A stretch of 63,369 nucleotides of DNA, filler included, from an uncultured Methanosarcinales archaeon (GTDB lineage: Archaea > Nanobdellota > Nanobdellia > Woesearchaeales > CAZKBD01): NCBI GenBank assembly GCA_964550945.1. It is 4 parts of 3 records of this genome, joined end to end, with 100 filler letters (N's around TTAATTAATTAA, not from the genome) between each part and the next. Parts side by side here need not be neighbours in the genome. Positions count along the whole stretch, not along the records: positions 10,247 to 28,147 come from CAZKBD010000002.1; 3 more parts are not named here. One strand, given 5' to 3'. A program made the translations under genes and the position numbers. Under the pieces are notes generated by a model, which was given only the letters and a program-made list of their open reading frames with translations, did not search any database and had not been told where the DNA came from. Below, piece after piece: positions 26,846 through 28,147 of this stretch. Numbering within the stretch: position 1 is the first letter of the stretch; the number at the start of each line of letters is the position of its first letter.

Positions 26846-28147
26846 TTATTCTCCTCCATCTATTCTTCCAAACGGTTTGTATAATATTCCGCCCCCTTTG
26901 TAGAACTTGCTAAAAAGCTCTACATAATGAAGCCTTAATGACTGTAAAAAACTGTCAAATATCCCTATGAACAGGTTGATGAAGTGGCCGATAACAAGTA
27001 TCAGCACTCCAACAATTATAAATATACCTCCATTCTTGAACATTTGGCCGGTAAACTCATTGACTATTAGCGCTAATCCTACTGATGAAAGCCCTATAGC
27101 CATAAGCCGGGCATAAGACAATATATTTGCAAATATAGTTGGGATCTCTATTAATCCTTCTATTCTTTCTCCTTTGAATATTATCAAGATAGAGGCTATT
27201 AAAACAGCATACCCTATGAAATGAGGCAAAGGAAGGAGTTTTGAGTAGCTTATGCCTAAAAGTGCTGCAGCAATCTCCAAAAAAATCCACCCAAACTTTT
27301 TGTAGAACGCTTCTTTAAATCCATGCTCTGCTAATTCGTTTTTGAAGCCAGATATCAGCCCTGAATTTAGGTGTATTACCCCTATTACAAGCGAAGTTAT
27401 CAGTAGTGTTTCAATCTTATGCTCAGGATTTCTGCTGATGAGGCCAGGATATATCTCTGCGCCAAAAAATTCCCCAAATACCAAGCCAAAAAGGATAGTG
27501 GCTGCTGAAGATATTAGGATTATATTCAAAAATTTGGAGAATCTAGGCATATTTTTCTTGAGTATCCAGACAACAATCAATGTCGTTATCCCATACCCTA
27601 TATCCCCCAGCATAAATCCAAACAAGAAAGGAAACGTAAAAGAAATAAACCATGTAGGGTCAATTGTCTTGTATTTGGGGATAGCATAAACATCAAGGAA
27701 AAACTGGAAACTATCAATTGGACTTGGATTATCAAATGCTGTTGGCACTTTATCATCCTTCTCAATATCAAACTTCTCGATAATCACCTTATTTTTAGCA
27801 GCCACACTTAGTGCAGATATCATATTATCAGCTTTCTTCTTAGGTATAAACCCCCAGATAATAACCGTCTGCTCAGTCTCAAGAAATTTTAAAGAAACCT
27901 CAAGCTTGTCAAATCTTTCTGATAGCGCCTTTTCATATTCTGGTAGTTTAGTCGCCCATTTTTTTCTAAGCTCTTCAATGCAGGTCTCGCTATTCTTCTT
28001 TGTGCTCCCTTCATTTTTAATAGCTGCTTTTACCTTGGCTATTGTTAATTTTTCATGCAGCCCAGAGATGTCAAAAACTGACCCTGCACTAAAGTGCGGG
28101 GCATGTTTTTGAGCATGCTCAGAAATCGCTGGTTTGCTCTGAGATAA
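26846..28147 (-). CDS. atpI: A/V-type ATP synthase subunit I (5' end lost at contig end)
   Basis: [29 protein letters not shown]; frame stays open upstream of the track's 27823 start (…VIIWGFIP…) to the gap. Confidence 0.95.
28069..28147. repeat. composite palindromic element inside atpI, truncated by contig end
   Basis: tgtcaaaaac-hairpin-gtttttgagcatgctcagaa, same scaffold as 1788-1910. Confidence 0.85.

Follow-up and report, generated by a model that had tools for sequence, protein, structure and literature searches.

The window, meaning the whole 63,369-nucleotide stretch that was analysed, joins four contig parts from the genome of a tiny archaeon living in groundwater: C2:1-10146, C2:42147-60047, the end of C4, and C10. 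Sequences on the two sides of an artificial linker (Table 1) are thus not true neighbours. Its second part ends with an A/V-type ATPase operon on the minus strand. Seven ORFs, which we take from their order and size to be subunits K, E, C, F, A, B and D, lie downstream of a gene for subunit I (atpI), identified by a Pfam V_ATPase_I match beginning at residue 35 of the frame at 26846-28147. This frame is open over 433 codons and enters a palindromic repeat element. The original prediction had described an atpI frame open through the element, the same scaffold in an intergenic position at 1788-1910, and a contig ending inside the element. All of this held: the boundaries of the intergenic copy are exact, and 28147 is the final base of C2. 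The 5′ half of the element-bearing atpI (about the first 210 codons) was absent from the assembly by tblastn and HMM searches, whose sole match was a paralogue on C32. That paralogue, intact at 648 aa and about 28-30% identical to the element-bearing atpI, belongs to a second, complete-looking A/V-type ATPase operon (C32:2235-10733). Elsewhere in the window we noted an ORF of 5816 codons with many repeats of about 99 residues, then a related ORF of 731 codons (42088-59538).

Table 1. Features of the window, and complete element copies within genes of the same genome
Feature	Position	Strand	Remarks
Complete intergenic element copy	1788..1910	+	123 bp; ends and centre as in the atpI copy, stems differ
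Artificial N-linkers	10147-10246, 28148-28247, 33592-33691		Not genomic; 28148-28247 joins C2 and C4
Seven ORFs downstream of atpI	20854..26859	-	Ordinary lengths: 80, 179, 353, 103, 581, 487, 207 aa
atpI, 3′ two-thirds (A/V-type ATPase subunit I)	26846..28068	-	Uninterrupted; about residues 213-625 of the closest orthologue
Two-hairpin repeat element	28069..28147	+	Cut by contig end, 79 of a predicted 111 bp; atpI reads the opposite strand
Hairpin 1, TGTCAAAAAC ... GTTTTTGAGCA	28069..28115	+	One extrahelical G, variable stem
Conserved centre, hairpin meeting point (GTTYTTGA-GCATGC-TCAGAAA)	28105..28125	+	Encodes SEHAQK on the gene strand
Hairpin 2, truncated start	28116..28147	+	19-21 of 22 bases as in sister copies on C59, C3, C81
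Third copy, at C4 contig end	33427..33543	-	Right half with nested hairpin; broken by IS-like repeat end at 33547-33591
Copy in THUMP methyltransferase gene			108 bp
Copy in RelE-like protein gene (C101)			108 bp
Copy in surface protein gene			111 bp; gene of 1812 codons
Copy in PyrD gene			150 bp; near gene start
Copy in NUDIX protein gene			54 bp; near the stop (3 codons away)

This element is one of a family with about 54 members in the genome. They share the design TGTCA-stem-TTGAGCATGCTCAG-stem-TGACA, in which two bulged hairpins meet at their tails; the feet are constant and the stems vary. Lengths range from 49 to 217 bp, and from 108 to 113 bp in the subfamily to which the atpI copy belongs. 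The conserved centre gave 48 matches in the genome and none in each of three base-shuffled genomes; 48 copies were delimited, 46 of them complete. A looser scan yielded six further candidates as against none in a reversed-genome control, and five were kept, the sixth being mis-delimited. The majority of copies are intergenic, and copies nest inside and abut each other. Both copies that were folded are more stable than all of 200 shuffles (z-scores -4.0/-3.3 for atpI, -5.9/-5.1 for the intergenic copy). Pairing is conserved over sequence, since 13 of 28 consensus pairs carry two-sided changes among 13 copies, and the terminal tag pairs with the element centre, again with compensatory change. 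Rfam gave no match to the element.

For the ends and flanks we used 147 clean copies, 45 from this genome and 102 from others, after dropping 12 of 159 with unclean ends or short flanks. In this set, which was selected for such ends, the first four bases are T (0.93) or C (0.07), G (0.97), T (1.0) and C (0.99). The terminal inverted repeats are imperfect (TGTCARRAA / TTTCYGACA).

Two kinds of repeated, IS-like end were observed at 33547-33591 of the window and at the ends of contigs C4, C20, C68 and of C26, C49, C74; one kind contains a TATA-like box, and the junctions share a CC. At least three of them sit within hairpins of this element. Elements of the IS110 family insert in REP hairpins; no IS110 transposase was found in the assembly.

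In atpI the left boundary of the element falls exactly at 28069 (TGTCAAAAAC). The junction might have arisen by misassembly, a repeat having been attached to a broken atpI end: the element stands at a contig end, as other copies do, sequencing depth is low, at about 3-5x, and none of the pieces spans the junction by 31 letters on both sides. However, the junction is the exact first base of the element family, and it lies at a D-I-S motif shared with the closest orthologue. It is also crossed by a 129-nt contig piece with 81+24 identical letters, the 24 on the element side being below the 31-letter bar; the run from which this piece comes may be that of the source sample. From another study there is a 93%-identical piece whose match breaks off precisely at 28068, with only 3 letters beyond; this gives a weak hint of an element-free allele. 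We therefore regard a misjoin as very unlikely.

An open frame over 79 bases is weak evidence by itself, and the case for a translated insert accordingly rests on the family and on complete in-frame copies elsewhere. When completed from the sister copies (on C59, C3 and C81), the atpI element measures 111 bp and is free of stops in the atpI frame in all three cases. The most likely form of the atpI copy, as judged from these sisters, is thus 111 bp, which would add 37 residues. The element could nevertheless be real and have broken the gene, through a stop, a frameshift or a nested insertion in the unseen part, leaving a recent pseudogene that is tolerated because of the second operon; selection on the element-bearing atpI could indeed be relaxed, given the intact operon on C32. 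Consistent with such a loss are the missing 5′ half, the intact second atpI, and the fact that two-thirds of copies are not a multiple of three long (55/53/39 by length class among the 147). Moreover, past 28092, at the hairpin 1 apex, the last 24 letters of the 129-nt piece no longer follow the window sequence, and the sister copy on C59 carries a nested unit at the equivalent point. Against this, the three sisters predict a stop-free 111 bp, and the remaining 407 codons of atpI and the seven downstream ORFs are uninterrupted. Among related strains, 19 of 28 atpI differences fall at third codon positions (p 2e-4), a bias that bears on the gene in these relatives and implies nothing about whether they carry the element. 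Disruption of atpI is thus unlikely, and an intact, insert-bearing gene is probable on the strength of the sister copies, although atpI is one incomplete example only, its element being cut by the contig end.

Alignment to AtpI orthologues by two aligners placed the site at residues 213-218 of the closest orthologue: the residues following the element are D-I-S, which match the orthologue at the aligned position, with alignment gaps just downstream. The site lies within a linker at 211-222 of this orthologue (pLDDT about 72-78) that connects the final distal-lobe strand to helix 223-278, the long collar helix of the soluble domain. The insertion in atpI falls at an indel-prone linker, which the predicted 37 residues would lengthen.

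Five complete copies within genes were found in this genome (Table 1), and all have lengths divisible by three and are open. Two of the five were verified against homologues. The THUMP methyltransferase has a clean 36-residue insert at the element boundaries that is absent in 24 of 24 orthologues. The C101 protein, which we take to be RelE-like and for which Pfam gave no family, has a clean 36-residue insert absent in all 17 homologues covering the site (of 19). In the AlphaFold model of the THUMP protein, 354 of 423 residues have pLDDT of at least 90, and values below 50 occur only at residues 26-60. In PyrD the element may precede an alternative ATG.

A search with a profile of the peptide that the insert encodes (pattern MSEI...SEHAQ...VFD) recovered 84 proteins among 1929 candidates and, at 50% clustering, 91 representatives. 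In 35 proteins of at least 150 aa the insert is internal (29 of the 84, plus 6 of 61 scored new matches), and such protein searches detect in-frame cases only. Insert-bearing Woesearchaeota proteins named by their sources include GatD, PEP synthase and CarA. It also lies in proteins that we take, by their Pfam accessions, to be ribosomal L10, CTP synthase and an aconitase-family protein. The insert splits the GatD match to PDB 1zq1 at chain residue 276, and that of PEP synthase lies between chain residues 111 and 118 of 2ols. The original prediction had proposed that an in-frame element like those of Rickettsia creates such inserts in housekeeping proteins, and SEHAQ...VFD/VLD inserts in the THUMP, RelE-like, GatD and PEP synthase proteins bear this out.

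The same prediction had offered removal at the RNA level as an alternative. The element would then be an intron-like RNA cut out of the transcript, for instance by the tRNA splicing endonuclease acting at a bulge-helix-bulge. It folds strongly on both strands and has complementary ends (TGTCA/TGACA), which speaks for such an RNA. But no flank-to-flank helix was found at any of 28 offsets in the 147 copies (|z| ≤2.1), genes carry the element in both orientations, and Rfam recognised nothing. In addition, there are few genic copies and those present stay in frame, neither of which would be needed if splicing were precise: random genic insertion would keep an open frame in 9% of cases, as compared with 5/5 complete genic copies here. 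The archaeal bulge-helix-bulge intron was rejected as a candidate, its exon-exon helix being missing at these offsets, and RNA removal in general is not supported and very unlikely. The best reading of these sequences is that the insert is translated as a loop.

Among frame-keeping random insertions, 54% would use the frame seen in atpI. Target-like sites are about 81% coding by a crude gene set, yet only about 6 of 54 copies are genic. Few genic copies despite mostly coding targets, together with the kept frame, fit blind DNA insertion with selection then acting on the proteins; a preference for intergenic targets could also play a part. An in-silico empty-site scan of 138 copies, blind within 35 codons of a gene end, revealed no convincing out-of-frame gene disruption. 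Other genomes supplied 109 complete copies (38 loci with short flanks), with no verified internal insertion, which weighs against generality; three spanned long ORFs, in positions that were N-terminal, upstream of the start or antisense.

The flanks of the 147 copies are asymmetric. On the left they carry hardly any signal; on the right they read Y(T 0.86, C 0.12)-D-T(0.91)-H-A(0.69)-A(0.72), a degenerate version of the left end of the element itself. Direct repeats of 1-8 bp outside the ends, as expected of a classical target duplication, were no commoner than in shuffles. The base with which the element starts covaries with the first base of the flank (p 7.5e-6). Seven copies in this genome start with C; the nearest neighbours of all seven start with T, all seven have a compensating G in the centre, and six have a target C beside them. 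In the set from other genomes, eight T-starting copies sit at C targets; the three-way covariation could not appear in that set, because the search pattern fixed the central base in question. One conceivable explanation is a single-strand mechanism of a new type, in which an element-internal base sets the target base or gets rewritten by it. We consider this a speculative proposal with an outside chance of being right. If true, base covariation would point to guide-like target pairing or to templated end synthesis by a DPANN host enzyme, and new protein loops would be in ongoing supply across the whole order.

Thus the element is dispersed, nests in its own copies, and inserts precisely at a one-sided target resembling its left end (Y-D-T-H-A-A). 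We propose that it is non-autonomous mobile DNA of Woesearchaeota-type archaea, that surviving genic copies are translated as loops, and that the atpI copy is likely 111 bp, a reading to which we assign a probability of about 0.72. On the gene sense strand the target typically supplies an Asp or Glu codon, so that a stop-free copy with a length divisible by three reads through as a peptide. The right-flank target predicts an Asp or Glu before the insert, which agrees with 31 of 33 inserts. Insertion would be roughly blind to genes, selection would purge most genic insertions, and the survivors would be translated as flexible loops. Precise insertion of whole units, the bulged hairpins and the one-sided target suggest a folded single-strand intermediate, and the element may move, as we tentatively infer, as a folded single strand processed in trans.

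A dedicated transposase was rejected: none of 128 element loci matched a Y1 or tyrosine recombinase, and no neighbour family recurred among 420 flanking ORFs. For an enzyme acting from elsewhere, an HUH/Y1 protein (IS200/RAYT-like) is the foremost candidate at somewhat less than even odds, an enzyme of another kind comes second at perhaps one chance in three, and an integron-like tyrosine recombinase is third and rather unlikely. None of 31 Y1 loci carries a full element. Of the 85 genomes with the element, 40 have Y1 genes, as compared with 92 of 316 others, and 6 of the 14 element-richest lack them, a weak co-occurrence among genomes whose kin are not independent. In this genome, neither of the two Y1 genes is followed by an element, and contig starts truncate the sequence upstream of both. 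Both of these transposase genes (C153, C146) lie directly upstream of what appear by eye to be diversity-generating retroelement loci, with a target gene, a template repeat and the start of a reverse transcriptase.

The one tyrosine recombinase of the genome (C24:17477-18121) is a protein of 215 aa comprising the catalytic domain only. Orthologues 66-86% identical to it occur in eight other genomes, hence in 9 of 401 in all. Four of the nine carriers are among the 14 element-richest genomes (nominal p 1e-4); the gene is missing in the other 10 of these 14, and four carriers are without an exact core. No element was found beside this gene or its orthologues. It adjoins two conserved genes and has upstream a conserved, repeat-rich site of about 90 bp, possibly its own recombination or control site. 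As a mobiliser it is a weak lead. To our knowledge, palindromes of the CGTC/TGTC type are without a known transposase, and what mobilises them is a long-open question; the sharp ends, one-sided target and covarying terminal base described here provide testable clues.

The conserved centre was present in 85 of 401 genomes of the order and absent from 47 genomes of other orders of the class and from viral contigs. Among the 85, four genomes are unpublished; each has 1-2 matches, and no result depends on them. Labels of 80 titled public loci were Woesearchaeota (39), 'uncultured Methanosarcinales' (28), Nanoarchaeia/Nanoarchaeota (7) and other or unspecified (6). Judging by these matches, the present genome would itself fall in Woesearchaeota. 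One match each was also observed under the labels Aenigmatarchaeota, Pacearchaeota and Saccharibacteria, in the last of these where a 1.7-kb contig ends; these could reflect transfer or binning error. The family explains odd inserts and contig breaks in these genomes. It has put the same peptide of about 37 residues into dozens of unrelated proteins, a natural screen of loop-insertion tolerance.

We found no printed description of this element family in the open-access literature, and compared it with known systems. Classical MITEs resemble it in having terminal inverted repeats, here imperfect, and differ in their target site duplication, which the element does not show. CGTC/TGTC-tagged REPs, as described by Di Nocera et al. 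2013 (PMC3733652), have a terminal YGTC tag, inverted dimers, intragenic copies and no dedicated transposase. The present family shares the tag, the inverted dimer, the intragenic copies and the lack of a dedicated transposase beside the repeats. In contrast, the REP tag is described there as unpaired, with a stem of 8-9 bp, a loop of 4-5 nt and a CCA tail, whereas the archaeal element has a paired tag, long stems and loops of varying size, and a GCA tail.

A second likeness is to REPINs and IS200-IS605 elements, which according to PMC3116915, PMC6006769 and PMC5934647 share the hairpin doublet, bulged stems, no classical duplication, a one-sided target and, possibly, element-encoded base pairing with the target. 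As with REPIN/RAYT systems, the inverted hairpin pair moves as one unit, judging by the precise inserts relative to empty THUMP and RelE-like orthologues; the difference is that no Y1 transposase gene is flanked by the archaeal element (0/31 loci). PMC6006769 reports only subclass 1.1 (IS200-type) Y1 enzymes in the archaea sampled there. Integron attC cassettes inserted at attG/GWT sites, as portrayed in bioRxiv 10.1101/2022.09.11.507474, likewise involve a folded single strand that is recognised by its structure, a short and degenerate target similar to the donor core, and a shared crossover base. Unlike them, the archaeal element has no gene cargo, cassette array or adjacent integrase, and its core sequence is another.

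The closest parallel in behaviour is the Rickettsia palindromic element (RPE) of Ogata et al. According to PMC2229807 and PMC10969869, RPEs are palindromes of about 100-150 bp, intergenic or in frame in unrelated conserved genes, to which they add a related peptide, and one insert is retained in an active protein (gmk). The archaeal element is likewise a dispersed palindromic repeat that inserts in frame in unrelated conserved genes and adds a related peptide. It differs in consisting of two separate bulged hairpins with exchangeable stems, where an RPE is one long stem-loop; in being genic in about 1 of 10 copies, as against nearly half for some RPE families; and in its one-sided target and its host, Woesearchaeota-type archaea rather than Rickettsia. 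Retention in an active protein is reported for the gmk insert, and the archaeal insert is known from sequence and a structure model. We conclude from this comparison, made by description, that the element works like an RPE and by its host is not a member of that group.

The idea of an archaeal analogue therefore stands as regards RPE-like behaviour. Its novelty was overstated: PMC2229807 and PMC2996958 relate that palindromic repeats with coding potential are fused in frame into protein genes of Methanocaldococcus jannaschii (Suyama 2005), and in-frame palindromes are thus known from Rickettsia, Wolbachia and M. jannaschii. The M. jannaschii repeats, compared by description only, are also archaeal, palindromic and in frame in protein genes, and come from a different phylum. 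By comparison, the present family spans 85/401 genomes of an order and dozens of proteins, so that protein-coding palindromes, known before from a few species, now reach a whole order of uncultured archaea.
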